Shown in pieces: positions 12,481 through 62,524 of a DNA stretch of 64,000 bases. Position numbers and translations under genes: made by a program. This DNA comes from Patescibacteria group bacterium (GTDB lineage: Bacteria > Patescibacteriota > Patescibacteriia > 2-02-FULL-49-11): positions 19,832-83,831 of the forward strand of contig JBAZQN010000005.1 in NCBI GenBank assembly GCA_041645165.1, read 5' to 3'. Below the pieces are notes generated by a model. It worked only from the letters and a program-made list of their open reading frames with translations. It made no database searches and had not been told where the DNA came from. Numbering within the stretch: the first letter of the stretch is position 1; every line of letters begins with the position of its first letter.

Positions 12481-12556
12481 CGTCGGAGCTCGTCTCCGAC
12501 CTCATGGGTGGCAGACAAGCTGCCACGCTACAATTATTGTCTTAATTTAGGCGGGT

Positions 12557-17934: not shown

Positions 17935-18030
17935 CGGTTGCCGCCTTTCTTGCTGCGGAACTCGTCCCGCTTCGCGGGACTCAAACAGTCCTCACGGCGA
18001 AATGCGGCAACCCGCGGCTGGTCTATATTT
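17935..18030. repeat. Conserved ~95-nt intergenic element (copy A), possible structured RNA
   Basis: The core ttcttgctgcggaactcgtcccgcttcgcgggactcaaacagtcctcacggcgaaatgcggca is about 90% identical to 50200-50285. It contains hairpin GTCCCGC-TTC-GCGGGAC and copy A has an outer stem GCCGCGGTTGCCGC/GCGGCAACCCGCGGC. Confidence 0.55.
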
Positions 18031-18082: not shown

Positions 18083-18166
18083 TGCCCAGAGGGAGAGTCG
18101 AACTCCCATGACCTTGCGGTCACATGGCCCTGAACCATGCGTGTCTGCCAGTTTCACCATCTGGGC
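18083..18166 (-). tRNA. tRNA-Leu (anticodon CAG), class II with long variable arm
   Basis: 84-nt cloverleaf by hand: acceptor GCCCAGA/TCTGGGC+A, anticodon stem CATGG/CCATG with loop TTCAGGG, variable stem GACC/GGTC, T-arm GGGAG-TTCGACT-CTCCC. Confidence 0.85.
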
Positions 18167-33056: not shown

Positions 33057-35561
33057 ATGCAAAAGGAAGCTAATGCACGATTAAAAATAAACGCCTTACT
33101 CCAAGAGTCCGGCTGGAGATTTTTTGATGATAAAAAAGGCAAAGCCAATATTGTCTTGGAAAATAACGCCAAAATCACAAAACAAGCCATAGATGAATTT
33201 GGCAACGATTTTGAAAAAACTAACAAAGGTTTTATTGATTTTTTACTGCTCGATGAAAAGGGTTTTCCGTTTGTCGTTTTAGAAGCAAAATCGGAAGACA
33301 AAGACCCTCTCGACGGCAAAGAACAGGCGCGCCGTTATGCCCAATCACAAAACGCCCGCTTTATTATTCTTTCAAACGGCAACCTTCATTATTTATGGGA
33401 TGTAGAGCGCGGCAACCCGACAGTTATCATCACTTTCCCGACTTATGAATCCTTGAAGCATTTTGAATCTTTCAAGCCAAGTTTTGCCGCTCTTTCAGAG
33501 GAAAAAGTTGAAAGCGATTATATTGTCCAAACTCAAAATCCAAATTATCAAAAAGACCCGCGCTGGATTGATGAAACTCAAAGGCCGGATTTTATCAAAG
33601 ATCAGGATTTAAAATTTTTACGGCCTTATCAGCTTTCCGCAATTTACTCCTTGCAGAGTTCGGCGAAAAAAGGCAATGATCGCTATCTTTTTGAAATGGC
33701 AACCGGCACAGGCAAAACTCTTATTGCGGGCGGAATAATCAAGCTGTTTTTGAAAAGCGGAAACGCCAAAAGAATTTTGTTTTTAGTTGATCGCTTGGAA
33801 TTGGAAGATCAAGCGTGGAAAAATTTTGTTCGTTTTCTCAAAAGCGATTTTACCTGCGTAATTTACAAAGAAAACAAAGACGACTGGAGAAAAGCGGAAA
33901 TTATCGTTTCCACAGTTCAAAGTTTGTCATTCAACAATAAATACAAAGAGCTTTTTTCACCGACAGATTTTGATTTGTTAATATCTGATGAAGCGCACCG
34001 TTCAATCGGCGGAAATAGCCGGGCAGTTTTTGAGTATTTTGTCGGGTATAAATTAGGGCTTACCGCCACGCCGAAAGATTATCTCAAAAATATTGACCCG
34101 CAAAAAGTCAGCGAGAAAGACCCGCGCGCTTGGGAACGCCGTCAGCTTTTGGATACTTACACGACTTTTGGCTGTCCTTCCGGCGAGCCGACTTTCCGAT
34201 ACAGCTTGCTTGACGGCGTAAAAGACGGCTATCTTGTTAATCCGATTGTCGCCGACGCGAGGACAGAAATCACCACCGAACTTTTATCAGAAAAAGGTTA
34301 TTCCTTAATGGTAGAAAACGAGGAAGGAATTGAGGAAGAACAAACCTTTTTCCAAAAAGATTTTGAGCGGAAATTTTTCTCCGATAAAACAAATCAGATT
34401 TTTTGCAAAACATTTTTAGAAAATGCGATCAAAGACCCGATTAGCGGGGAAATTGGAAAGAGTATTATTTTCTGCGTGAGTCAAAATCACGCTTCAAAAA
34501 TAACGCAAACTTTAAATCAATTTGCTACGGCTCTTTGGCCCGACAAATATAATTCCGACTTTGCCGTGCAGGTTACTTCCAATATTCCCGACTCTCAACA
34601 ATTTCCTATCAATTACGCAAACAATTATCTAAACGGACAAACAAAATGGCTGGCGGGCTATAAATCAAGCAAGACAAGAGTTTGCGTAACCGTCGGCATG
34701 ATGACAACTGGCTACGATTGCCAAGATGTGATGAATCTTTGCCTTATGCGACCAATTTTTTCTCCGACTGATTTTATTCAAATCAAAGGACGCGGAACGA
34801 GAAAATATACTTTCAGCTACAAAGACGCAGACAATGAGCTGATAAAAATAGAAAAAGACACTTTCAAACTTTTTGATTTCTTCGCTAACTGCGAATATTT
34901 TGAGGAAAAATACAATTACGATCAAGTTTTGAAGCTCCCGATTAAAACCGGAACGGGAACAGGCGGCGGCGAGGGCGTAGATATTGATGAAGTAAATATT
35001 TTTAATCCCGACCCGCTCAAAACTTTTTCAGAAATTGCAGTCGGCCTTGCCGGTATGAAAGTTGACTGGAAGTTTTTTGATAAATTTGAATCGGTTGTAA
35101 AAAATGATCCGGTTGTTAAACAAAAATACGAGCAGGGCGATGTCAAAGGAGCGGAAGAATATGTTAAAACCGAAATTTTTGAAAAACCGGAAGATTATTT
35201 CAATTTGGATAAATTGCGAAAATCCGTCAAAGCAGATCGTCGCATTACGCTCAAAGAATTTATTGAAAAAATCTTTGGTGGTATAAACAAATTCAAATCA
35301 AAAGACGAATTGCTTGAAGATGAATTTGAAAAGTTTGTTTCTATCCACAAACCCGAAAATGATAATCTTTTACAAATTAAAAATTTTCTAAAATGTTATG
35401 TTGCAGATCAGGAATTTAGAACAATTATTGACAATAATCAAATCCAACGGTTATACACCTACCCAAGTTTTTCCGCTAATGAACTTAATGAATTGGGTAA
35501 GTATAAAAAGATTGTACCGGAATATGTCAAAGATTATGTTTCCTTAAATACTTTTATGTAA
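33057..35561 (+). CDS. hsdR: Type I restriction enzyme R subunit
   Basis: N-terminal PD-(D/E)xK nuclease (DFLLLDEKGFPFVVLEAKSED) and SF2 helicase motifs (ATGTGKT, DEAH: LLISDEAHRS). Confidence 0.85.
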   Translation: MQKEANARLKINALLQESGWRFFDDKKGKANIVLENNAKITKQAIDEFGNDFEKTNKGFIDFLLLDEKGFPFVVLEAKSEDKDPLDGKEQARRYAQSQNARFIILSNGNLHYLWDVERGNPTVIITFPTYESLKHFESFKPSFAALSEEKVESDYIVQTQNPNYQKDPRWIDETQRPDFIKDQDLKFLRPYQLSAIYSLQSSAKKGNDRYLFEMATGTGKTLIAGGIIKLFLKSGNAKRILFLVDRLELEDQAWKNFVRFLKSDFTCVIYKENKDDWRKAEIIVSTVQSLSFNNKYKELFSPTDFDLLISDEAHRSIGGNSRAVFEYFVGYKLGLTATPKDYLKNIDPQKVSEKDPRAWERRQLLDTYTTFGCPSGEPTFRYSLLDGVKDGYLVNPIVADARTEITTELLSEKGYSLMVENEEGIEEEQTFFQKDFERKFFSDKTNQIFCKTFLENAIKDPISGEIGKSIIFCVSQNHASKITQTLNQFATALWPDKYNSDFAVQVTSNIPDSQQFPINYANNYLNGQTKWLAGYKSSKTRVCVTVGMMTTGYDCQDVMNLCLMRPIFSPTDFIQIKGRGTRKYTFSYKDADNELIKIEKDTFKLFDFFANCEYFEEKYNYDQVLKLPIKTGTGTGGGEGVDIDEVNIFNPDPLKTFSEIAVGLAGMKVDWKFFDKFESVVKNDPVVKQKYEQGDVKGAEEYVKTEIFEKPEDYFNLDKLRKSVKADRRITLKEFIEKIFGGINKFKSKDELLEDEFEKFVSIHKPENDNLLQIKNFLKCYVADQEFRTIIDNNQIQRLYTYPSFSANELNELGKYKKIVPEYVKDYVSLNTFM

Positions 35562-45314: not shown

Positions 45315-45434
45315 TGCCTGTTGACAAGAGGTAGGTGGTTTGTATAGGATGAGAATAGTCTATGTACCATTGCACCAAGGTCAACGCCATCATTATCAGC
45401 ATTATACTTGTAAGCCCTTTCAAGAGGCCTTGAT

Positions 45435-47378
45435 GTGCATTCGAAATTAATGCGAAACGTCACGAGCCTCCACTCAAAGGGGCTCGATTTCATTTTAAGT
45501 TCTATGCCGCAATCAACGCCCAATGCACCGGACACGGCACTGCTTATGGATTGGCAGGCGCGTTGCCATGAGTGCGGCATGGAGTTTAGCCTGCACGAGG
45601 CGGTCCATCGCTGCCTCCATTGCAAGGGGCCGCTCAACCTTCTTTGCGATTATCAGGAGCTTGCGCGATTCATTAACCAGACTGACTGGAAAGAGTCAAA
45701 CCTGCGCTCCAGCAAATACTGGCGCGCGCTTCCTCTGGGGAATTTCACGCAGATCGTGACTCTGCAGGAAGGTGTCACGCCTTTGAAGCTCCTGTCGAAC
45801 CTTGGGGAGCGGCAGGGCATTAAGCGCTTGTGGGCGAAATTGGAGAGTGAGAACCCCACGGGATGTTTCAAGGATCGCGGGTCGCTTTTGGAAATTTCTT
45901 GGGCCGTGCAGCATGGGTATAAGGCAGTGGTGTGCGCATCCACCGGCAATATGGCCGGGTCGGTCGCGGCGTACGCGGCAAAAGCAGGACTTGAATGCTA
46001 CATTTTTGTGCCAGAGGGAGTGCCCATTGGCAAGCTTTCCATGATTATCGCGTATGGCGCGAAGCCTATTGCAGTCCGCGGAAGCTACAATGACTGTGTG
46101 CGGCTGGCAGAATATTTAGCGTCCGAGGAGGGTTACTTTCTCGCCGGGGATTATGCCCTGCGCGCAGAAGGGAGCAAGACGCAGGCCTATGAAATTATCG
46201 AACAGCTGCACTGGCAGGTGCCAGAGTGGGTGGCGGTGCCCATGGGGAACGGCACGAATCTTTCAGGGATCGCAAAAGGTTTCCAGGATCTTTTAGCGCT
46301 TGGCCTTATTGACCGCTTGCCGAAACTTCTTGGCGTACAGGCGGCGCAATCCTCGCCTATAGTTGAAGCATGGCAGAGGAATGAGGCGAAAGTCATAGCG
46401 TCTGAATCGCTCGCCCAGACCGTGGCGCAAGCGGCAAATGTGGGTAATCCTTTGGATGCCACGAAGGCCTTGAGCGCGATCAGGGAAAGCGGGGGACAGG
46501 CGGTCGCGGTGAGCGAGGAAGAGATTTTGTGCGCGCAGGAAGAATTAAGCAGGGCAGAATCAGTGTTCATAGAGCCGTCGTCCGCGCTTGTCTGGGCAGG
46601 GGTGAAGAAACTGAAAGAACAGGGAACAGTGAACAGTGATCAGAGTATCGTTTTGGTGCTGACAGGCCATGGCTTAAAAGATCCCAAGAGCGTGCTCGTG
46701 AGGGCGGTGGAACCGCCGGTTATCGCGCCCACCGTTGCCGCCTTGCAGGAATTATGGAAGGAGCGGCTGTATGCGCTCACAAAGGTGAGCAAGAGTGAAG
46801 GTATGAAAGTCCTGTGGGATGCGCACACTATCCCTACGGACCTTGGCGTGCGGGCGAAGAAGCTTTTCCATGTCGCGCTGGATAAGGCGCATGAGGAGCG
46901 GCTCGCAATTTCCGTCGCGCAGTTCCATGAGAAAATGCATGAGATGACGCTGCACAGTTTCAATCTCCTCCTTGAAGATGTGACCAAACTCCCGTACGAT
47001 TACCAAGAGATACTGCGGATTGCGGATTTCACCATCCAGGTTCCCCGGCACGCGATGCCGCGCGCCGAGGTAAGCGTGAAGCTCAACGGCGGAACGTACG
47101 AAGGTGAATATGAGGGCGTGGGGCCGGTTGACGCGGTCATTAAGGGCGCAGAAGAAGCGCTTGCCAAATCCCCGCACGGCATTCCCCATGCACTGGTGGA
47201 TTACGACGTGGAGATCGACCGCGGCGGCACCGACGCTATTGTCCGCGTGCACCTCGCGCTTGAGCACCCGAACGGCGCCAAGGTGACCGGCTCGGCGGTG
47301 TCGCCGGACGTCATCACCGCGTCCGTGGTGGCGTTTGAGAGAGCATATAATTTGTTGTATCAAAAGGTGACATCGTAA
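45435..47378 (+). CDS. Threonine-synthase-like PLP enzyme fused to a C-terminal LeuA-type allosteric (LeuA_dimer) regulatory domain
   Basis: N-terminal Zn-ribbon (CHECG..CLHCKG), ThrC PLP motif ENPTGCFKDRGS and a fold-type II core. The C-terminal ~200 aa align to the LeuA regulatory domain (GVGPVDAVIKGAEEAL; LVDYDVEIDRGGTDAIVRVHLALEHPNGAKVTGSAVSPDVITASVVAFERAYN vs E. coli LeuA ..[37 protein letters not shown]). Confidence 0.8.
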   Translation: MHSKLMRNVTSLHSKGLDFILSSMPQSTPNAPDTALLMDWQARCHECGMEFSLHEAVHRCLHCKGPLNLLCDYQELARFINQTDWKESNLRSSKYWRALPLGNFTQIVTLQEGVTPLKLLSNLGERQGIKRLWAKLESENPTGCFKDRGSLLEISWAVQHGYKAVVCASTGNMAGSVAAYAAKAGLECYIFVPEGVPIGKLSMIIAYGAKPIAVRGSYNDCVRLAEYLASEEGYFLAGDYALRAEGSKTQAYEIIEQLHWQVPEWVAVPMGNGTNLSGIAKGFQDLLALGLIDRLPKLLGVQAAQSSPIVEAWQRNEAKVIASESLAQTVAQAANVGNPLDATKALSAIRESGGQAVAVSEEEILCAQEELSRAESVFIEPSSALVWAGVKKLKEQGTVNSDQSIVLVLTGHGLKDPKSVLVRAVEPPVIAPTVAALQELWKERLYALTKVSKSEGMKVLWDAHTIPTDLGVRAKKLFHVALDKAHEERLAISVAQFHEKMHEMTLHSFNLLLEDVTKLPYDYQEILRIADFTIQVPRHAMPRAEVSVKLNGGTYEGEYEGVGPVDAVIKGAEEALAKSPHGIPHALVDYDVEIDRGGTDAIVRVHLALEHPNGAKVTGSAVSPDVITASVVAFERAYNLLYQKVTS

Positions 47379-50199: not shown

Positions 50200-50290
50200 T
50201 TCTGCTCGGTCGCACCCCAGTTCTTGTTGCGGAACTCGTCCCGCTCCGCGGGACTCAAACAGTCCTCACTGCGAACTGTGGCACCCCCTC
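50200..50290. repeat. Conserved ~95-nt intergenic element (copy B)
   Basis: See copy A at 17935-18030. It lies in the same orientation, immediately after the ilvD stop. Confidence 0.55.
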
Positions 50291-50324: not shown

Positions 50325-50780
50325 ATGAACTATGTATCCGCCGAAGGAAGGCAGGGAAGGGTAATGGTAGCTCGGTTTAAGCCCGGACAGGATTTGCGTG
50401 ACGCATTGAATGCTTTTTGCCTTGAGAAGGGGATAAAAGCCGGCTATATTCCGGTACTCTTAGGAGGATTCAAGAATCTCAAGGTGAATGCGATGGCGCA
50501 AGGAGAGGAGGATGACCAACCGCGCACTGTCTTGCGCGAGTACCGCGAGCCTCTGGAATATTTCGGCTGCGGCACGGTTGCATTTGCGGACGGCAAGCCT
50601 TCGATCCATATCCACCTTACTGCGGCGCAAGGGAACCACAACGCGGTCGGAGGGCATCTCGTATCCGGAGAGATCGTCTTTCTAACAGAAGTAGTTATCG
50701 TGGAGGTTGAGGGCATTGTCATGACGCGCCAGAGTGATCCCGAAGTTTTCAATATGCCCCTTTTGCATTTTTCCCATTGA
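50325..50780 (+). CDS. PPC-domain (DUF296) protein
   Basis: GRVMVARFKPGQDL..IKAGYIPVLLGGF..HIHLTAAQGNHNAVGGHLVSGEIVFLTEVVIVE resembles the PPC/DUF296 fold. The start may be at an internal Met. Confidence 0.5.
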   Translation: MNYVSAEGRQGRVMVARFKPGQDLRDALNAFCLEKGIKAGYIPVLLGGFKNLKVNAMAQGEEDDQPRTVLREYREPLEYFGCGTVAFADGKPSIHIHLTAAQGNHNAVGGHLVSGEIVFLTEVVIVEVEGIVMTRQSDPEVFNMPLLHFSH

Positions 50781-50909
50781 TCCCGTTGATAATAAATGAG
50801 ACATGGTTTAATATGAGATGTCCTTTAATCCATAATTCAATTATTTATACAGTTTATATACAACGGGGTTGACATAAAAACCCGGCGGGAGTAGCCTTAG
50901 AATATACCT

Positions 50910-50966
50910 ATGCAAAGTACCGCAACCAATCAGATTTTTAGCGTTGTTATCCTTATCCAGCCGTGA
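50910..50966 (+). promoter_or_regulatory. Candidate ilv leader peptide MQSTATNQIFSVVILIQP (6 of 8 consecutive residues I/V/L)
   Basis: 18-codon ORF read directly. It sits 36 nt upstream of a terminator hairpin and 310 nt upstream of ilvC, which fits branched-chain-amino-acid attenuation. Confidence 0.5.
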
Positions 50967-51002
50967 GGGTGGCCGCTTGCGTATACGCAATACCGTCGCA
51001 GA

Positions 51003-51027
51003 GGCCGCCCGAAAGCGGCCATTTTTT
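51003..51027 (+). terminator. Rho-independent terminator / attenuator hairpin in the ilvC leader
   Basis: GGCCGC-CCGAAA-GCGGCC followed by ATTTTTT. Confidence 0.6.
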
Positions 51028-51276
51028 ATACCAAATAATGGATCGCAGCAATTTTAGGTTTCACGCGTATGTACGCAGAAGCCGTCCGCGTCACCTTTAG
51101 TAATATTTGGCGTTTAGTGCGTATGCGGACGGACGCAGACCCGCCTGCCTACGCCTATGGTCGGGTACGAACGAGAGTAAGGTTATGCATCTAAAGTCAC
51201 AGGTGTATCTCATTCATGAATAGAGGCTATGGCGGGCAGGTCAACGCAGATATGTATTATTTTTTATTTTACTACT

Positions 51277-52383: not shown

Positions 52384-52743
52384 ATGAATAACCACATAAA
52401 ACCCATCGGCCCATATTCAACCGCACGGCGTGCAGGCGATCTCCTTTTCTGTTCCGGACAGATCGGGATTGATGGGTCAGGTGCGCTCGTCGCCGGCGGT
52501 ATTGCGTCGGAGACGCGGCAGGCGTTTGAAAATCTTAAAGAGGCGCTGCGCGAGGAAGGCTTCACTCTTCAGGACGTGGTGAAGGCCACCGTATACCTGA
52601 AGGATATGAACGAGTTTGCGGCGATGAACGCGGTGTATCAGGAATATTTTAATCCTCCGTATCCAGCGCGCGCGACCATACAGGTCGCGGCGCTTCCGAA
52701 AGGCGCGTGTATAGAAATTGAAGCAGTGGCAGTAAAGGGTTAG
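52384..52743 (+). CDS. ridA: RidA/YjgF-family reactive-intermediate (enamine/imine) deaminase
   Basis: 119 aa, PIGPYSTARRAGDLLFCSGQIG...ATVYLKDMNEF..R..A..A. Confidence 0.85.
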   Translation: MNNHIKPIGPYSTARRAGDLLFCSGQIGIDGSGALVAGGIASETRQAFENLKEALREEGFTLQDVVKATVYLKDMNEFAAMNAVYQEYFNPPYPARATIQVAALPKGACIEIEAVAVKG

Positions 52744-54938: not shown

Positions 54939-55055
54939 ATATGATACCAATATACGAATGTATTCGAATGATGCGAATCACTGCGAATTCGTAGGTATTA
55001 GCCTGCCTGCGCAGGCAGGTATCATTAGTATTAATTAGTTGATTAGTATCATACT

Positions 55056-56271: not shown

Positions 56272-56474
56272 ATTGCTATTCAATTCCGATTCCATCGTCA
56301 TCCCCGCCCCGTATCAAGGTACGGGGCAAGCTCCAGCGGGAATCCAGACGCCGTCCTCGACCGAGATCGGGGAAAACCAAAAGAAAATTGATCTTTTTGT
56401 TTGTTTTATGTCTGGATTCCAGATCCCGGTCTGGAATGACAATCGGAATTGGGTTGGCAAATTAGTATATTATA
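56272..56474 (+). mobile_element. MITE-like repeat, copy 5 (subfamily A)
   Basis: About 90% identical to copies 1 and 2. It lies between the convergent aminotransferase and leuB genes. Confidence 0.8.
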
Positions 56475-57558
56475 CAGATATACGCGGAAATTGAGATACG
56501 ATCAAATCACCCATCGTTTTCGTTCCTACAATTTTATCGTCCGTGGTGGTGGTATCTTTGATATCAAAGGTACGATATCCGCTCTCTAACACCGACGACA
56601 CGGCGCGCCATACGGCATCCGATTCTGTTTTGAGGCCGAACGCGTACTCAAGCAGCATTGCGCCGGAAAGGATGGAGGCGATCGGGTTTGCGATGCCCTT
56701 CCCGGCGATATCCGGCGCCGATCCGTGGATAGGCTCAAATAAACCCACACCCGGCCCAAGGCTCGCGGACGCGAGCAGGCCAAGACTTCCCGCAATTTGC
56801 GATGCTTCGTCGGTCAGGATGTCGCCGAACATGTTTTCCGTGAGGACCACGTCGAATTGGCGCGGATTTTTTATTAATTGCATGGCGGCGTTATCCACAT
56901 ACATATGCGTGAGCGCGACGTCGGAGTAATCGCGCGCAACTTCGTTCACGGTCTCCCGCCAGAGGCGGGAACATTCCAGGACGTTTGCCTTGTCTACGGA
57001 ACGGAGCGTTTTTTTCCTTCTGCGCGCCGCCTCAAACGCCATGCGGGCGATCCGCACGACGGCATCTTTGGTATAGCGCATGGTATCCCATGCTTCGTCC
57101 CGCGCCACGTTTCTGCCCCGCGGCTCTCCAAAGTAAATGCCGCCGACCAGTTCCCTGAAAAATACGATATCCGCGCCTTCAAGGACCTCCTGTTTCAATG
57201 AAGAAGCGTCGAGGAGTGGAGAGAAGAGCCTGATTGGGCGGATATTTGCGAACAAATCAAAATCTTTGCGGATTTTCAAGAGTCCCTGTTCCGGTCTCAC
57301 CGTGGCATGCGGGTCCTGGTCGTATTTCGGCAAGCCCACCGCGCCGAGCAAAATCGCGTCTGTGTCCTTGGCAGCTTCAATGGTTTTTGGCGGCAGGGGA
57401 TCGCCTGTCGCGTCGATTGCCGCAGCACCAATCAACTCATGACGAAAATGGAAATCGTGTCCGAATTTTTCCGCGACCGCTTTCAGCATCTTGACGGTTT
57501 CTGCGGTCACCTCCGGTCCTATGCCGTCACCCGGTAAAACTAAGATATTTTTATACAT
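56470..57558 (-). CDS. leuB: 3-isopropylmalate dehydrogenase
   Basis: ILVLPGDGIGPEV...NLFANIRP..; start set at MYKNILVL (the ORF track extends 60 nt upstream). Confidence 0.9.
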   Translation of the reverse strand: MYKNILVLPGDGIGPEVTAETVKMLKAVAEKFGHDFHFRHELIGAAAIDATGDPLPPKTIEAAKDTDAILLGAVGLPKYDQDPHATVRPEQGLLKIRKDFDLFANIRPIRLFSPLLDASSLKQEVLEGADIVFFRELVGGIYFGEPRGRNVARDEAWDTMRYTKDAVVRIARMAFEAARRRKKTLRSVDKANVLECSRLWRETVNEVARDYSDVALTHMYVDNAAMQLIKNPRQFDVVLTENMFGDILTDEASQIAGSLGLLASASLGPGVGLFEPIHGSAPDIAGKGIANPIASILSGAMLLEYAFGLKTESDAVWRAVSSVLESGYRTFDIKDTTTTDDKIVGTKTMGDLIVSQFPRISV

Positions 57559-57590
57559 ATCAATACGCATCAATGAGATTTTTTCACATT

Positions 57591-57661
57591 GTAGCGTGGT
57601 AGCTTGTCTACCACTCACGATGTCTTATTGTCGGAGGCAAGCTCCGACGCTACTATTCTTG
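57591..57661 (-). repeat. Structured hairpin repeat (GTAGCGTGG...ACGCTAC), copy 1, leuD-leuB intergenic
   Basis: gtagcgtggtagcttgtctaccac...gcaagctccgacgctac is homologous to 61158-61245. It has nested inverted repeats with a long-range closing stem. Confidence 0.55.
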
Positions 57662-58405
57662 TGACTGTCGTTGCTCGAACGCAGCAATCTCCGGCTCAAA
57701 TTTAAGAATATATCCAATCTCATCTACCCCGTCGCGGAGACATGCTTTCACGAACGGATCAATCTCAAAGCGGTAGTCCTTGCCTTTCCAACTCACGGTT
57801 TGCCGTTCTAGGTCAAGGTGCGCTTCTTCTTGCGGACTACCTGCGGCATCTTTATGCATTTGGTCCACGGCCACTTCAGGCAATGAAACGGGAAGAAGGC
57901 CGTTTTTATAGCAGTTATTTTTAAAAATATCGCCGAAGGTAATCGCAATCACGGCCTTGAACCCGTATTCAGAAAGCGCCCAGACCGCATGTTCGCGGGA
58001 AGAGCCGCTGCCAAAATCCCTATGCGCGAGCAATATCCTTGCATTTTTATCCGCCTCCGCAGGAAAACCGCGGGCGTCAGCCCGCGGATGAATGCGGGAC
58101 TGCGGATCCGCCGAAGCCTTGCGCGAAGGCGGCAGGACTGCTACGGCGGATTCCGCCTGATCTCCCTTGAGAGAGATACCGTGGGCGTGAGCCCGCGGAG
58201 TTTCATACAGGGGATTATTGAGAGGAAATTCCGGCCCTGCCTCGCCCTGCGGATTAAACCGCAAATCACGGAATAGATTTTCCCCATAGCCTTCCTTTCC
58301 GGTTGCGATCAAAAACCGCGCGGGTATGATCTGGTCAGTGTCCACGTCGTCCATCAGCAGAGGAACGAGGAGCGAAGAAAAATTTTTGAATGGAGCCTGT
58401 GACAT
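57653..58405 (-). CDS. leuD: 3-isopropylmalate dehydratase small subunit carrying a ~49-aa palindrome-derived in-frame insertion
   Basis: LVPLLMDDVDTDQIIP..and ..ILLAHRDFGSGSSREHAVWAL match LeuD. Relative to E. coli LeuD, the segment RAHAHGISLKGDQAESAVAVLPPSRKASADPQSRIHPRADARGFPAEADK is inserted, encoded by GC-palindromic DNA (ccgcgggcgtcagcccgcgg / ccgtgggcgtgagcccgcgg / ccgccgaagc..gcgaaggcgg). Confidence 0.85.
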   Translation of the reverse strand: MSQAPFKNFSSLLVPLLMDDVDTDQIIPARFLIATGKEGYGENLFRDLRFNPQGEAGPEFPLNNPLYETPRAHAHGISLKGDQAESAVAVLPPSRKASADPQSRIHPRADARGFPAEADKNARILLAHRDFGSGSSREHAVWALSEYGFKAVIAITFGDIFKNNCYKNGLLPVSLPEVAVDQMHKDAAGSPQEEAHLDLERQTVSWKGKDYRFEIDPFVKACLRDGVDEIGYILKFEPEIAAFEQRQSQE

Positions 58406-58407
58406 AT

Positions 58408-59835
58408 TTATTGAATATATTTTCTCACGTCCGTCACCTTGCCTTCAATAGCCGCCACGGCCGCCATGGCAGGGGACATGAGGAGCGTGCGCGCGCCCTG
58501 GCCCTGCCTGCCAATGAAGTTGCGGTTGGATGTGGACGCGCAGTATTTCCCCGGGGGCACGACATCGCCGTTCATCGCGATGCACATGCTGCAGCCCGGA
58601 TCGCGCCATTCGCATCCGGCATTTTCGAATATTTCCTTCAGCCCTTCCGCTTCCGCCTGTTTCTTCACACTTTGCGATCCCGGCACCACGTAGACGATGC
58701 GGCCCGCCGCGATTTTCCCCCCTTTCAGGAATTGCGCGGCGACGCGCAGGTCTTCAATGCGCGCATTGGTGCAGCTGCCGATAAATACATAATCGATGCG
58801 TTGCCCTATGACCCGCTGGCCCGGTTGCATTCCCATATAGTCAAGCGCTTTCTTCACTTCAGGATTCGCGGTGTCATCAGGAATGTGTTCACTCACCTTC
58901 ACGGACATGCCCGGATTGATGCCCCAGGTCACCATGGGCTCGATTTCAGACGCGTCCATCTTCACTTCACGGTCAAACGCCGCGTCCGAATCACCGCGAA
59001 AGGAAAGCCATGTGGCTATTGTCGCGCGTTTTGATTCTTCGGTAGGAAAGGAAATTTTTGAGAGCAGATAATCGACCGTCGTCTGATCCGGCGCGATCAT
59101 GCCGGCGCGCGCGCCCGCTTCAATGCTCATGTTGCACACCGTGAGCCTCTCTTCCATGCTTAATTTTTCTATTGTATTCCCGCGGTATTCCAGAGTGTAG
59201 CCCACGCCGCCGCCCACACCGATCCGCCGGATGATGGAAAGGATGATGTCTTTTGCATACACCCCCCGCGGAAGCTCACCGGTGATGGTGATGGCCATGG
59301 TTTTGGTCTTTTTTTGCAGGAGGCACTGGGTAGCGAACACCTGTTCAACTTCCGACGTGCCGATACCGAAGGCGAGGGCGCCAAACGCGCCGTGCGAGGA
59401 CGTATGGCTGTCACCGCACACGATGGTCATGCCCGGCTGGGTGAGGCCGAGTTCTGGCCCGATGACGTGGACAATTCCTTGCTTGTCGCTCTCAAGCCCG
59501 TAGAGAGTGATGCCTTCTGCGCGGCAATTCTCTTCAAGCGTATTCACTTGTTTCTGCGCATTTCCGTCTTTCCACACTCTTTCGAAGCGTCCCCGCGAGG
59601 GCACCGCATGATCCATGGTGGCAAAGGTGAGATCAGGGCGGCGCACCCTCATTCCGCGCGTTTTTAGCCCCGCAAACGCCTGCGGTGAGGTCACCTCATG
59701 GATGAGATGAAGGTCAATGTAGATGATCGCAGGTTCATTCGGCGCCTGCCCCGTAAGCCCCGCCTTGGCGGGGTCCTTCGGGGCTTCCCGCACCACATGC
59801 GCGTCCCATATTTTGTCGTACAAGGTCTTGGACAT
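58408..59835 (-). CDS. leuC: 3-isopropylmalate dehydratase large subunit
   Basis: Aconitase-family motifs (MSKTLYDKIWDAHVV, GDSHT, CMGPC-like GSCTNAR). The stop overlaps the leuD start. Start set at MSKTLYDK. Confidence 0.9.
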   Translation of the reverse strand: MSKTLYDKIWDAHVVREAPKDPAKAGLTGQAPNEPAIIYIDLHLIHEVTSPQAFAGLKTRGMRVRRPDLTFATMDHAVPSRGRFERVWKDGNAQKQVNTLEENCRAEGITLYGLESDKQGIVHVIGPELGLTQPGMTIVCGDSHTSSHGAFGALAFGIGTSEVEQVFATQCLLQKKTKTMAITITGELPRGVYAKDIILSIIRRIGVGGGVGYTLEYRGNTIEKLSMEERLTVCNMSIEAGARAGMIAPDQTTVDYLLSKISFPTEESKRATIATWLSFRGDSDAAFDREVKMDASEIEPMVTWGINPGMSVKVSEHIPDDTANPEVKKALDYMGMQPGQRVIGQRIDYVFIGSCTNARIEDLRVAAQFLKGGKIAAGRIVYVVPGSQSVKKQAEAEGLKEIFENAGCEWRDPGCSMCIAMNGDVVPPGKYCASTSNRNFIGRQGQGARTLLMSPAMAAVAAIEGKVTDVRKYIQ

Positions 59836-59951
59836 AGCAATGAAAATCCCAAATCCCAATTTCCAATGACCAATAAAATCCAAATGTGAAAATCCCAAAT
59901 TGGTCATTCAGTCATTAATGCATTGGTTGGTCATTGGGGTTTGGGCATTGG
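59836..59951 (-). promoter_or_regulatory. leuA-leuC intergenic region packed with ATTGGTCAT/ATGACCAAT palindromic half-sites and AAATCCC repeats
   Basis: The 9-mer ATTGGTCAT occurs four times and its reverse complement ATGACCAAT once, plus a 10-bp inverted repeat AATGACCAAT/ATTGGTCATT around a 24-nt loop, immediately upstream of the leuC ATG. Confidence 0.45.
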
Positions 59952-61145
59952 TCATTTCTTTGAACTTTGAAATTTGAATTTTGTCATTATATCAATGAGG
60001 TCTTCTTCTTCCACTTCTTTCTTTTCGTCTGCCACGATGAGGAAACGCCGATACGCCTCATCCAGCTGATCGCCTTCCAATGAGAATCCCAATTGCGCGA
60101 GTTTGTGTTTCAGCGCGGCGTGGCCGGAGCGTGCGGTGAGCACGATTCTCGACACGTCCACGCCCACATCCGGCGGATTGATGATTTCATAATTATCCCT
60201 GCTTTTCAATACGCCGTCCTGATGGATGCCGGATGAATGGGCAAAGGCATTTGCGCCTACAATCGCTTTGTTCGGCTGTACCGGAATGCCCATGGTTTTA
60301 GCGATGAGCCTGCTTAAAGAGGCTAAGCGGGAGCTCTCAATCCTGATCTCGAAGCCGTTATCGCGCCGGGTTTTCAGCGCCATCACGACTTCTTCGAGCG
60401 CCGCGTTTCCCGCCCGCTCGCCGATGCCGTTCATCGTCACTTCCACCTGCCGCGCGCCCGCGCGCACGCCTGCCAAAGTGTTCGCGGTCGCAAGCCCCAA
60501 GTCGTTGTGGCAATGGACGCTTACCACGACATTCTCAATGCCTTTCACGCGGTCGAACAGGTATTTTATTTTTTCATACCACTCTTCAGGAAAACAATAG
60601 CCGGTGGTGTCGGGGATATTGACGACCGTGGCGCCCGCGGCAATGACCACTTCAACCATCTGCGCCAAAAACACAGGATCCGCGCGTCCCGCATCTTCGG
60701 CATAGAATTCAATGTCATGGACAAATTGTTTCGCATAGCGCACCGCATCGACGCCTTGAGAGAGCACTTTGTCCCGCGTGGATTTAAACTTTTTTTCAAT
60801 ATGGATATCAGACGAGCCGATGCCGGTATGGATGCGCGGCCGTTTCGCAAAACGCAATGCCTCGACTGCCGCGTCAATGTCTTTGTGCACGGCCCGCGTG
60901 AGCGCGCACACCGTCACGTCGCCCACGGCCTTGGACACCTCGACCACTGACGCGAAATCTCCCGGGCTTGATATGGGGAATCCCGCTTCAATCACGTCCA
61001 CGCTCAGCCGCGCAAGCTCCCGCGCGAGCGCGACTTTCTCTTGCGTGTTCAGCTTCGCGCCCGGCACTTGTTCGCCATCCCGCAAGGTAGTGTCGAAGAT
61101 GTACAGACGTTCTTTGGTTTGGGGTGAAGATGGCATAGTGAGCAT
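59952..61145 (-). CDS. leuA: 2-isopropylmalate synthase, short form lacking the C-terminal allosteric domain (LeuA/CimA/NifV-like catalytic core only)
   Basis: LYIFDTTLRDGEQ, HCHNDLGLATANTL and the TIM-barrel plus subdomain I are present. At 397 aa the protein ends before any LeuA_dimer regulatory domain. Confidence 0.85.
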   Translation of the reverse strand: MLTMPSSPQTKERLYIFDTTLRDGEQVPGAKLNTQEKVALARELARLSVDVIEAGFPISSPGDFASVVEVSKAVGDVTVCALTRAVHKDIDAAVEALRFAKRPRIHTGIGSSDIHIEKKFKSTRDKVLSQGVDAVRYAKQFVHDIEFYAEDAGRADPVFLAQMVEVVIAAGATVVNIPDTTGYCFPEEWYEKIKYLFDRVKGIENVVVSVHCHNDLGLATANTLAGVRAGARQVEVTMNGIGERAGNAALEEVVMALKTRRDNGFEIRIESSRLASLSRLIAKTMGIPVQPNKAIVGANAFAHSSGIHQDGVLKSRDNYEIINPPDVGVDVSRIVLTARSGHAALKHKLAQLGFSLEGDQLDEAYRRFLIVADEKKEVEEEDLIDIMTKFKFQSSKK

Positions 61146-61157
61146 ATTTATTCATGG

Positions 61158-61245
61158 TAGCGTGGCAGTTTATCTGCCACCGATAGGTTACTTGAAGTCG
61201 CAGACAAGCCTGCTTGCGCAGGCAAGCTGCGACGCTACGAATTGG
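61158..61245 (-). repeat. Structured hairpin repeat, copy 2, in the leuA 5' leader
   Basis: gtagcgtggcagtttatctgccac...gtcgcagacaagcctgcttgcgcaggcaagctgcgacgctac. Confidence 0.55.
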
Positions 61246-61283
61246 TTTTGAATTTTAGGATTTCATTTAACTGCGGTAAAGAT

Positions 61284-61308
61284 AAAAAAATCCTCCCCTT
61301 ATGGGAGG
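61284..61308 (-). terminator. leu attenuator terminator (minus-sense CCUCCC-AUAA-GGGGAGG + U7)
   Basis: Perfect hairpin plus a U-run read from the minus strand, 28 nt downstream of the leader-peptide stop and upstream of leuA. Confidence 0.75.
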
Positions 61309-61336
61309 TAATAGGTAGAATTTTGACTACGCAGCA

Positions 61337-61411
61337 TTACTTCCCACCCGGTAATGGAAGGAGGAGAGAAGTAAGGAGAAGCGAGTGAATGGCGGTGGTT
61401 TGATGTGTCAT
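61337..61411 (-). promoter_or_regulatory. leuL: leu leader peptide MTHQTTAIHSLLLTSLLLPLPGGK (7 Leu in 10 codons before the stop)
   Basis: 24-codon minus-strand ORF. Its 3' end (GGGAAGUAAU) can pair with AUUACCUCCC (the 5' half of the terminator) as an antiterminator. The Leu-codon region (CUUCC...) can pair with GGAAG of region 2. Confidence 0.7.
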
Positions 61412-61521
61412 ATTCTTAAGTTTAGGGTATGTCAAATATCCGTTTACGTCAATACATTGTTGTGGATAAGGGCTTTTTATGCTATTTTGACGTGTGAAAG
61501 AAGCGATGGTATTCTTGTAGT

Positions 61522-61824
61522 ATGAAGAATGAAAATTTTCCTCGTGGTTTAAATGATTCATCTTCATCAATCAAGGAATTGACTACTCTACTTGATAAAG
61601 TATCGGAGGGAGAATTAGTCGAAGCATATAATAAAGGACGAGTAGTGCTACAACAAGGGACAGTGCATGATAGTGGTTCACCGCTGAATCTTCACTTGTG
61701 GGGCGTTGAAGGTATAGCATGGGATTCTCAACCATTGAAAGAAAGAATTGAGGAATTGAAAGACGCATTAGAAGAGAAGGGATACCAATTTGATCATGAG
61801 GGAAATATTATTAAATTATCTTAA
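61522..61824 (+). CDS. Hypothetical protein
   Basis: 100-aa ORF in a low-GC stretch with no family assignable. Confidence 0.3.
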   Translation: MKNENFPRGLNDSSSSIKELTTLLDKVSEGELVEAYNKGRVVLQQGTVHDSGSPLNLHLWGVEGIAWDSQPLKERIEELKDALEEKGYQFDHEGNIIKLS

Positions 61825-62524
61825 GTCCATGTTTTCTAAAAAAAGGATTATCGCTATTGCGCTTTTTGCCGTGATCGGCCTATTGGCGGATCGCGTGGCG
61901 GTGAGCGCGGTGTGGGGAGCTAAGGGCCAGACCTTTACGCTCTTGCAGCTGTTTGCGCCGGCAGTGGGCGCATTCCTTGGCGGCGTGAGCGGCGCCGTTA
62001 CCGTATTGTTTACGGAAATCGCGAGTTTCATCATCCAAGGGAAAGAAGTCACCGTGATGAATGTAGTTCGCCTTTTGCCGCTGGTGTGCGCGACATTTTA
62101 TTTTGCCAGCGTCATGCGGCCCCATGGCAAGAAGTCGCGGTGGATTGAGATTGGCGTGCCCGCGCTCGCCATGCTTATCTTTTGGGAACACCCCATCGGC
62201 CGCGCGGTGTGGTACTACGCGCTTTATTGGACCATCCCCATGATTGTATCGCTCACGCCTTTGCGGAAGACCTTGGTGGGGAAAAGTTTAGGCTCCACAT
62301 TTACCGCGCACGCAGTCGGCGGCGCGTATTGGATCTGGGCAACCAATATGGCGGCGCCGCTCTGGACCGCGCTCATTCCGGTCGTCGCCATGGAGCGCGC
62401 GGTGTTTGGGCTGGGGATTGCGCTCACGTTTATGGCGGTCAACCTGTCGCTCTCTCGCCTGCCCTCGGTCCACGCGCTCCCGATCAAGATTCACCATGTA
62501 AGGACAGTTTTTTCACGGGGTTAA
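61790..62524 (+). CDS. Polytopic membrane protein (ECF-transporter S-component-like, about 6 TM)
   Basis: Small hydrophobic protein with S-component-like topology. The start may be the internal Met (MFSKKRII). Confidence 0.45.
   Translation: MIMREILLNYLKSMFSKKRIIAIALFAVIGLLADRVAVSAVWGAKGQTFTLLQLFAPAVGAFLGGVSGAVTVLFTEIASFIIQGKEVTVMNVVRLLPLVCATFYFASVMRPHGKKSRWIEIGVPALAMLIFWEHPIGRAVWYYALYWTIPMIVSLTPLRKTLVGKSLGSTFTAHAVGGAYWIWATNMAAPLWTALIPVVAMERAVFGLGIALTFMAVNLSLSRLPSVHALPIKIHHVRTVFSRG

Follow-up and report, generated by a model that had tools for sequence, protein, structure and literature searches.

How does a bacterium of the Patescibacteria (candidate phyla radiation, CPR) adjust its leucine operon to the supply of leucine? 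The question is raised by a stretch of 64,000 nt, referred to here as the window, from contig JBAZQN010000005.1 (positions 19,832 to 83,831) of the Patescibacteria group bacterium assembly GCA_041645165.1. An operon of leuA, leuC, leuD, and leuB lies on the minus strand of the window, and an earlier note had described the DNA immediately upstream of leuA as a leucine attenuator with a leader peptide. Follow-up of that interpretation supported it, as every element that defines the class at the sequence level is present, and the segment is very probably a ribosome-mediated (leader-peptide) transcription attenuator of leuA-leuC-leuD-leuB. For comparison, the DNA around LeuA homologs was fetched, with loci numbered L001 etc. 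The features discussed below are collected in Table 1.

The leader open reading frame (ORF) had been noted as 24 codons with 7 Leu codons, which was correct to the base in the minus-strand sequence, where the ATG occupies 61411-61409 and the TAA 61339-61337. It is short, promoter proximal, and enriched in codons for the amino acid made by the operon that follows. The seven Leu codons are CTT CTC CTT, CTC CTC CTT, and TTA; six fall within an 8-codon span, and the additional UUA (L20) is found at 61352-61354 on the minus strand. Across 13 Patescibacteria leaders, 64 of 76 Leu codons were CUY, compared with 52% of the Leu codons in the window's genes, where CUC (29%) and CUU (23%) are the commonest. 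Given this bias, the switch would report the charging of a CUY-reading tRNA-Leu, and the pyrimidine bias of the leader may also serve pairing with region 2.

An intrinsic terminator is located between the leader ORF and leuA (61308-61284). The gap between the stop codon and the hairpin is exactly 28 nt (61336-61309), as previously described, and the hairpin alone was calculated at −10.1 kcal/mol. The hairpin and U7 of the earlier description are present, although the stem has 6 bp and not the 7 bp given there. The helix that competes with the terminator is built from the terminator 5′ arm and a segment at or after the ORF end, and the position of the ribosome would decide between the two. In this antiterminator, GGGAAGUAAU (61345-61336) pairs with AUUACCUCCC (61312-61303) at 9 of 10 positions, the count originally reported, and RNAfold extends the helix to 12 pairs. 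In the unconstrained minimum-free-energy fold, region 2 pairs with region 1 through UUACUUCUC (61374-61366) and GGGAAGUAA (61345-61337) plus three more pairs. Ribosomes were represented by masking the 5′ part of the leader to 12 nt beyond the A-site codon. Masks at Leu 11, 12, 13, or 18 gave the antiterminator without the terminator, and a mask at the stop codon gave the terminator only; masked folds at these Leu positions thus predict the release of region 2 to region 3 by a stalled ribosome that had been proposed. The switch was predicted in 7 of 10 homologs tested; in L086 it was limited to stalls at Leu 11-12. The fold of the 301-nt leader region had a z score of −4.98 against dinucleotide shuffles, part of which is due to hairpins resembling repetitive extragenic palindromes (REP-like) downstream of the terminator.

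Table 1. Features of the leuA leader region, its operon, and the sister leaders, in window coordinates
Feature	Positions	Strand	Basis or remark
Putative −35 box TTGACG of the leader promoter	61447..61452	−	Conserved position in relatives
Putative −10 box TACCCT, 12 nt before leader ATG	61424..61429	−	Alignment: T, A, and final T invariant
Leader ORF (leuL-like), 24 sense codons + TAA, MTHQTTAIHSLLLTSLLLPLPGGK	61337..61411	−	Sequence reading
Regulatory Leu codon tract, CUU CUC CUU (L11-13), ACU UCU, CUC CUC CUU (L16-18)	61358..61381	−	
Region 1, pyrimidine strand, partner of region 2 without a ribosome	61362..61374	−	Minimum-free-energy folds
Region 2, GGGUGGGAAGUAAUG, last codons + UAA stop; partner is region 1 or region 3	61335..61349	−	
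Region 3, UAUUACCUCCCAU, terminator 5′ arm + flanks, partner of region 2 in antiterminator	61301..61313	−	
Terminator hairpin CCUCCC-AUAAG-GGGAGG (regions 3:4), 6-bp stem, 5-nt loop	61292..61308	−	Terminator scan
U7 tract of intrinsic terminator, one A after stem	61284..61290	−	Sequence, terminator scan
Spacer between terminator and leuA, GC-rich REP-like hairpins	61146..61283	−	Absent in L083, shorter in L085
leuA, 2-isopropylmalate synthase, short form	59952..61145	−	NCBIfam NF002086, 4e−178, profile positions 3-384 of 516
leuC (58408-59907), leuD (57653-58405), leuB (56470-57618)	56470..59907	−	NCBIfam
Ile attenuator, ORF MYHCTKVNAIIISIILVSPFKRP (45362-45433), 5 Ile in 7 codons	45321-45497	+	Before thrC-like gene at 45504
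Ile/Val/Leu attenuator, ORF MQSTATNQIFSVVILIQP (50910-50966)	50869-51030	+	Before ilvC, small ORF, ilvB

Upstream of the leader ATG, at a distance of 6-12 nt, TTGAC(A/G)-17 nt-TAnnnT was found in 12 of the 13 Patescibacteria leaders, and no Shine-Dalgarno-like motif was present in the last 18 nt before the leader ATG at 12 loci. If transcription starts 6-8 nt from the −10 box, the usual distance, the window leader would have a 5′ untranslated region of approximately 4-6 nt, and the leader mRNAs of L090, L091, and L174 would be leaderless. On the plus strand, the divergent 100-amino-acid gene is preceded by TTGACG-17-TATTCT with a TG upstream (61487-61524), and its ATG at 61522 follows the −10 box by a mere 6 nt, a layout suggesting that leaderless mRNAs are common in the organism.

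These features could operate together as follows. The σ70-type promoter TTGACG-17-TACCCT would start transcription a few bases upstream of ATG 61411, and a ribosome would begin at the nearly leaderless 5′ end and translate the 24 codons of the leader. With an ample supply of charged tRNA-Leu (the CUY reader), the ribosome would reach the UAA in region 2 and cover that region, upon which the region 3:4 hairpin and U7 would form and RNA polymerase would terminate at approximately 61284-61290. When leucine is scarce, the ribosome would stall on CUU-CUC-CUU or CUC-CUC-CUU, and the free region 2 would pair with region 3 (AUUACCUCCC), blocking the terminator and allowing polymerase to enter the leu genes. 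If the leader were not translated at all, 1:2 and 3:4 would both form and transcription would terminate. Since the stop codon lies inside region 2, a ribosome finishing the peptide would block the antiterminator, and the trp and leu leaders of enterobacteria follow the same logic of a stop codon and a blocking ribosome. It is from these elements that we infer the start site, translation of the leader ORF, coupling of transcription to translation, and a response to leucine. The mechanism is an ordinary one, and the host lineage alone is new; the interest lies in that lineage and in a leader ORF that lacks a Shine-Dalgarno sequence.

Conservation of the Leu-rich mini-ORF and the hairpin in related genomes had been put forward as a check on this interpretation, and both are kept from 88 to 71% LeuA identity. 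At 88, 87, 80, 78, 73, and 71% identity, relatives retained the ORF, the terminator, and an ORF end complementary to the terminator 5′ arm, and conservation of the reading frame and its regulatory codons was seen in related genomes. The leader of L083 and L084 (88% LeuA identity) is MHQTIAIRSLLGLLLLTYWGGK, that of L085 (87%) is MHQTRTTNSLLLTSLLLTPKVGK, and that of L086/L087 (80%) and L089 (78%) is M..(I)LLGLLLLPDFGGI, with ...ILLGLLLLPDFGGI in L086 and L089. When the window was aligned with L083, L085, L086, and L089 (88 to 78%), indels inside the leader ORF were of 3, 3, and 9 nt, all in frame. Conserved in this five-sequence alignment were the promoter hexamers, ATG, CUY Leu run, GGTGGGA, stop region, and ACCTCCCA, as well as the hairpin and the T-tract that belongs to it; the residues at both ends of the peptide varied, as did the spacer. 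In-frame indels combined with a retained Leu run are the pattern that would be expected of a translated frame selected only for that run. Region 2 had an identical sequence in L083 and almost the same one in L085.

More distant Patescibacteria loci (L090, L091, L001, L014, L020, L172, L174, and L176) carried unrelated peptides with Leu runs and lineage-specific terminators; the Leu leaders among them include those of L090 and L091 (73 and 72% LeuA identity), L001 from Dojkabacteria, and L172 from Kerfeldbacteria. An equivalent hairpin was found in all Patescibacteria homologs whose operon begins with leuA, and hairpins at this same position in relatives differed in sequence (CGCUCCC, CUCUCUC, CCCGCC, and CCCCCACC). 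The window type of leader, GGUGGG(A) with (U)CCCACC or CCUCCC, occurred only with a clade of LeuA whose named members are Patescibacteria.

As the loci had been picked by their hairpins, a test of terminator covariation would have been circular, and complementarity between each stop region and its own terminator arm was tested instead. Across 41 non-identical loci, which are phylogenetically related and therefore represent an effective sample of fewer than 41, the native duplexes averaged −13.0 kcal/mol compared with −9.9 kcal/mol for cross-locus duplexes, and 0 of 10,000 permutations were as low. The pairs concerned are GGGAAG:CCUCCC in the window, GGUGGGA:UCCCACC in L086/L089 and L176, GGGUAGUGUAG:CUACGCUCCC in L090, CGGGAGG:CCUCCCG in L001, GGCGGG:CCCGCC in L094, and GAGAG:CUCUC in L014/L020, with GGGUAGUG:CGCUCCC also among the lineages compared. 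For the 2:3 helix, 90% of cells in the five-sequence alignment were paired (35 to 56% in slid controls), one pair showing a compensatory change from A-U to G-C; scores this high occurred in 6 of 500 shuffles.

A group II intron was identified directly 3′ of the attenuator T-tract and before leuA in L086 and L087 (1085-2945 in L086), leaving the leader and terminator intact. It encodes an RVT_1/GIIM reverse transcriptase ORF, and its Rfam D1-D4 matches scored 106 and 53 bits. Certain group II introns of bacteria home to positions immediately downstream of intrinsic terminators, and the position of this one is an independent, if circumstantial, hint that the hairpin is a terminator.

The combination of a Leu-dense ORF and a terminator proved specific. 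The two strands of the window together contain 948 ATG-initiated ORFs of 8 to 40 codons. Two of these had at least six Leu in 8 codons, and only the leuA leader was followed by a terminator-like hairpin within 90 nt. The 450 nt upstream of leuA homologs were then screened, in two independent sets of loci, for an ATG ORF of 8 to 40 codons that has three or more Leu in 6 codons and is followed by a terminator no more than 90 nt away. Positives were obtained at 29 of 85 species-representative loci and 21 of 75 metagenome loci (50 of 160), compared with 0 of 85 and 0 of 75 in the reverse-complement control; applied to the other 19 amino acids in the 85-locus set, the screen was positive at no more than 3 of 85 loci each. 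The metagenome scan added only two close relatives, both identical to L089. The genes neighboring the element upstream are divergent from the leu operon, so the terminator cannot serve an upstream gene, and this explanation was rejected.

Two further leaders, identical in design and preceding branched-chain genes, were found when the short ORFs of the window were screened for any amino acid (Table 1). They belong to a branched-chain amino acid region spanning 45.4 to 61.1 kb of the window, which holds a thrC-like PALP/LeuA_dimer fusion, ilvE, ilvD, ilvC, a small ORF, ilvB, an aminotransferase gene, and leuABCD. The Ile attenuator has the putative promoter TTGACA-18-TAGGAT before ATG 45362 and a terminator, CGAGCCTC...GGGGCTCG (45463-45486), with a U-rich tail; in masked folding, an Ile stall gave the antiterminator and a ribosome at the stop codon the terminator. 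In the Ile/Val/Leu attenuator, TTGACA-17-TAGCCT lies 12 nt before ATG 50910 and the terminator GGCCGC-CCGAAA-GCGGCC (51003-51020) is followed by AUUUUUU, and the same mask-dependent switch was predicted. Both sister leaders have TTGACA-17/18-TAnnnT 11-12 nt upstream of the ATG. Three leaders, each with a codon content suited to its operon, are difficult to account for except by ribosome-mediated attenuation.

Several observations weigh against attenuation by a translating ribosome. To our knowledge, transcription-translation coupling has never been examined in Patescibacteria, and the start site, termination, and translation proposed for the element are read from its sequence. The terminator stem is only 6 bp long. 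The 1:2 pairing suggested by the earlier note, present as it is in the unconstrained fold, received no comparative support; this helix showed no covariation, with 76% of cells paired and 147 of 500 shuffles scoring as high. Masks at Leu 16-17 led to an alternative hairpin of region 2 and the terminator was kept. The masked folds predicted no switch for L091 (72% LeuA identity) and L014, both of which keep the Leu-rich ORF and the terminator. For the window alone, dinucleotide shuffling of the intervening segment likewise abolished the terminator in the stalled state in 55 of 300 cases; this single-sequence test was not significant, and the cross-locus tests were therefore relied on instead. 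A weak promoter-like site (TTTACC-17-TAAAAT, 61280-61252, a 9/12 match) follows the terminator and could give unattenuated expression; promoter-like matches of this kind were found at chance level (2 found, 1.7 expected).

The terminator could be regulated by a sensor other than the ribosome, such as an RNA-binding protein, a tRNA, or a metabolite, with the Leu-rich ORF incidental or untranslated. Such a sensor would sit well with the lack of a Shine-Dalgarno sequence before an ATG whose use is presumed, and the leader mutants of Streptomyces ilvB/leuA, according to the summary of that work, did not fit classical attenuation (PMC1262725). It would leave unexplained, however, why conservation extends to the Leu run, the reading frame (with its in-frame indels), and the stop in region 2 but not to the spacer or the remaining peptide, why the enrichment is specific to Leu codons, and why the Ile or Ile/Val/Leu codons of the sister leaders match their operons. 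T-box and riboswitch models were also unmatched, and the ATG is placed where a leaderless mRNA would start, and we consider a non-ribosomal sensor very improbable.

Another reading takes the promoter, ORF, and terminator as an independent small gene, for a hydrophobic micropeptide or a small RNA, and gives leuA a promoter of its own. The peptide core SLLLTSLLLPL is indeed hydrophobic, terminated attenuator RNAs can act in trans, as does rnTrpL of Sinorhizobium, and the promoter-like site at 61280-61252 follows the terminator. That site, however, is of a kind found at the chance level given above, and in L083 leuA starts 17 nt after the terminator stem, which leaves no room for a separate promoter. 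Outside the Leu run the peptide is not conserved, yet the element is always tied to leuA, even in lineages whose leaders are otherwise unrelated, and an independent gene is thus very improbable. That a pyrimidine-rich stretch merely happens to read as Leu codons beside an ordinary hairpin deserves almost no credence. The weak single-sequence antiterminator shuffle test (55/300) and the frequency of terminator-like hairpins, of which 26 were found in a 20-kb region where shuffles led to an expectation of 23.4, would be compatible with chance. Conservation at 71 to 88% LeuA identity, 50 of 160 positive loci against 0 of 160 in the control, 0 of 10,000 permutations, and a combination of Leu-dense ORF and terminator that is unique in the window would not, and these comparative data have effectively refuted chance already.

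Downstream of the attenuator, the reported order leuA-leuC-leuD-leuB was confirmed with NCBIfam (E values from 1e−65 to 2e−213), and it is the same in L083, L089, and L091. The leuA start had been placed at 61145, from which the ORF encodes 397 amino acids; the likely start is instead ATG 61136, which is used by the 100% identical database protein P0001 (394 amino acids). The encoded LeuA has no LeuA_dimer domain, and for an enzyme without this allosteric domain, control of transcription would be a plausible route for sensing leucine. The leuD ORF encodes 250 amino acids compared with approximately 190 to 200 normally, and its match to the LeuD profile is split over two stretches. The extra segment, which contains an all-GC 8-bp hairpin (58087-58068), could represent an in-frame insertion or an extension of the N terminus; gene calls in L083 and L089 leave a gap of 230 to 285 nt between leuC and leuD.

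The 138-nt spacer between terminator and leuA was considered as a second riboregulator and rejected, being absent in L083 and short in L085 and having hairpins that recur in other intergenic regions. These REP-like palindromic hairpins (GGTGGCAGATAAACTGCCAC and GCCTGCGCAAGCAGGC) have intergenic copies at 12507-12526, 55001-55020, and 57635-57653. The possibility that the leu operon is an island of anomalous GC content was also rejected, as the leu region has 50 to 55% GC and the window approximately 49%. A second repeat, of 55 nt with 94.5% identity, is found in intergenic DNA at 50221-50275, upstream of a 151-amino-acid ORF at 50325, and at 17947-18001, where it adjoins tRNA-Leu(CAG) (18083-18166); it is probably another small repeat family. 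Between 32000 and 42000, GC content falls to 34 to 41% (49% overall) across restriction-enzyme-type genes, among them a ResIII/HSDR_N helicase at 33057-35561 with large neighboring ORFs, and this island was probably acquired horizontally.

Within the branched-chain region, the gene behind the Ile leader and ahead of ilvE-ilvD (45504-47378, plus strand) encodes a threonine-synthase-like PALP domain (TIGR00260 thrC, 220 bits) and a C-terminal LeuA_dimer domain (Pfam, 1.5e−21), the domain missing from the window LeuA. This unusual fusion may be an enzyme under allosteric control that supplies the isoleucine pathway. The small ORF at 52384-52743 was tentatively read as RidA-like.

As for the host, the named best matches of the window UvrA were all Patescibacteria/Parcubacteria, at up to 85% identity. 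The closest LeuA proteins were metagenomic sequences, followed by named ones from Kerfeldbacteria, Dojkabacteria, Levybacteria, and similar groups. The best species-level LeuA matches were Cytophagales, but a Bacteroidota host was rejected in view of the closest LeuA proteins and the named UvrA matches, which place the window in a Patescibacteria (CPR) genome with a GC content near 49%. The label "Gram-negative-style" in the earlier note is a misnomer, given that the named best matches of UvrA are only Patescibacteria/CPR and that the class also occurs in Firmicutes (PMC5794164) and Actinobacteria (PMC1262725).

With a textbook mechanism, the element is of value mainly for annotation and comparison. 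It is real, yet was missed by gene callers and by Rfam, and it would extend classical attenuation to the candidate phyla radiation, where gene regulation is almost unknown and amino acid biosynthesis unusual. The layout gives promoter and start predictions for uncultivated bacteria (TTGACA-17-TAnnnT, 6-12 nt, ATG, no Shine-Dalgarno) and suggests that leaderless translation and transcription-translation coupling may operate in them; the 13 Patescibacteria leaders, together with dozens from Bacteroidota, could seed a new RNA family model. A wider proposal, to which we give an even chance of being right, is that ribosome-mediated attenuation through leader ORFs that are leaderless or nearly so is the standard branched-chain control in Patescibacteria that keep the pathway, and that the window holds a regulon of three attenuators (Leu, Ile, and Ile/Val/Leu) in which leucine sensing has moved from the lost allosteric domain of LeuA to the leader. 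If so, no cis-regulatory RNA mechanism for amino acid biosynthesis in CPR would have been described before this one, which would also be indirect evidence for coupled transcription and translation there. The literature searched, which left most subscription journals outside its coverage, yielded no paper that connects attenuation or leader peptides with CPR/Patescibacteria.

One of the closest known systems is leuL-leuABCD of enterobacteria (E. coli and Salmonella), which likewise has a promoter-proximal ORF with a Leu run and a terminator before leuA, the same pathway and gene set, and an antiterminator that overlaps the terminator 5′ arm. The window element differs in having no sequence or structure similarity to that leader (Rfam, E ≤ 10). 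Its Leu codons are the commonest of the genome and form two triplets rather than one run, whereas leuL of enterobacteria uses rare Leu codons. It also differs from leuL in lacking a Shine-Dalgarno sequence, in an ATG 12 nt after the −10 box, in a stop inside region 2, and in its Patescibacteria host. With cmscan, positions 60500-62500 gave only six chance-level Rfam matches at E ≤ 10, none to a leader family, and no relevant match at gathering score was obtained in the whole window or in 12 related loci. Membership of the element in the enterobacterial Leu_leader, the Lactococcus leu/phe leader, or the T-box family was therefore rejected. T-boxes also sense tRNA charging and choose between terminator and antiterminator before amino acid genes, but the window leader is approximately 130 nt long with an ORF and has neither a specifier loop nor a T-box sequence; as no T-box was matched in the window or the 12 related loci, the earlier preference for a leader-peptide attenuator over a T-box was upheld.

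Actinobacterial leader ORFs often start on leaderless transcripts. Ribosome-mediated attenuation by runs of Leu or branched-chain codons outside Proteobacteria is represented by the Leu-rich attenuator peptide of S. aureus (PMC5794164) and the ilvBNC leader of Corynebacterium (PMC11857589, PMC10272879); their operons, however, are ilv-leu and ilvBNC, and they have no sequence relationship to the window element. In the actinobacterial LEU element, which also has an upstream Leu-run ORF before leuA, the Leu run pairs with leuA's Shine-Dalgarno box in a pseudoknot (PMC1262725). The window Leu tract instead lies 213 to 236 nt upstream of the leuA start at 61145 with the terminator between them, the hairpin and U7 being 146 nt before leuA, and pairing with the leuA ribosome site was not evident.

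Bacteroidota offer leaders of the same class with the same target. Their amino acid attenuators were reportedly proposed from comparative genomics by Vitreschak et al. in 2004 and Lopatovskaya et al. in 2010, and leader-peptide attenuators before amino acid operons have been proposed from the transcriptome of Flavobacterium psychrophilum (PMC9723704). Many positives of the leuA screen came from Cytophagales, Spirosomataceae, and Paludibacter, so Leu leaders before short-form leuA are widespread in Bacteroidota too. These loci (L004, L008, L009, L011, L022, L023, L030, L034, L063, L104, and L133, among others) have ORFs of 15 to 20 codons, a terminator, and a short-form leuA approximately 65% identical to that of the window. 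The leaders are Leu or Leu/Ile leaders, for example M..LLLIAF (M..NDLLLIAF), ..LLLLITS, ..HILLLGIIILLQHK, and MNKSYLHILLLGIIILLQHK, with terminators such as AACCCTTTCTC...GAGAAAGGGTT 30 to 70 nt before leuA. Neither the Cytophagales/Spirosomataceae nor the Paludibacter-like leader families matched an Rfam family, and their peptide, terminator, and promoter sequences are unrelated to those of the window. Leader-peptide attenuation has been described or suggested for Proteobacteria, Firmicutes (PMC5794164), Actinobacteria (PMC1262725, PMC11857589), and Bacteroidota (PMC9723704), and the Patescibacteria element, judged by its sequence, would belong with them, as it has every feature by which the classical class is recognized.

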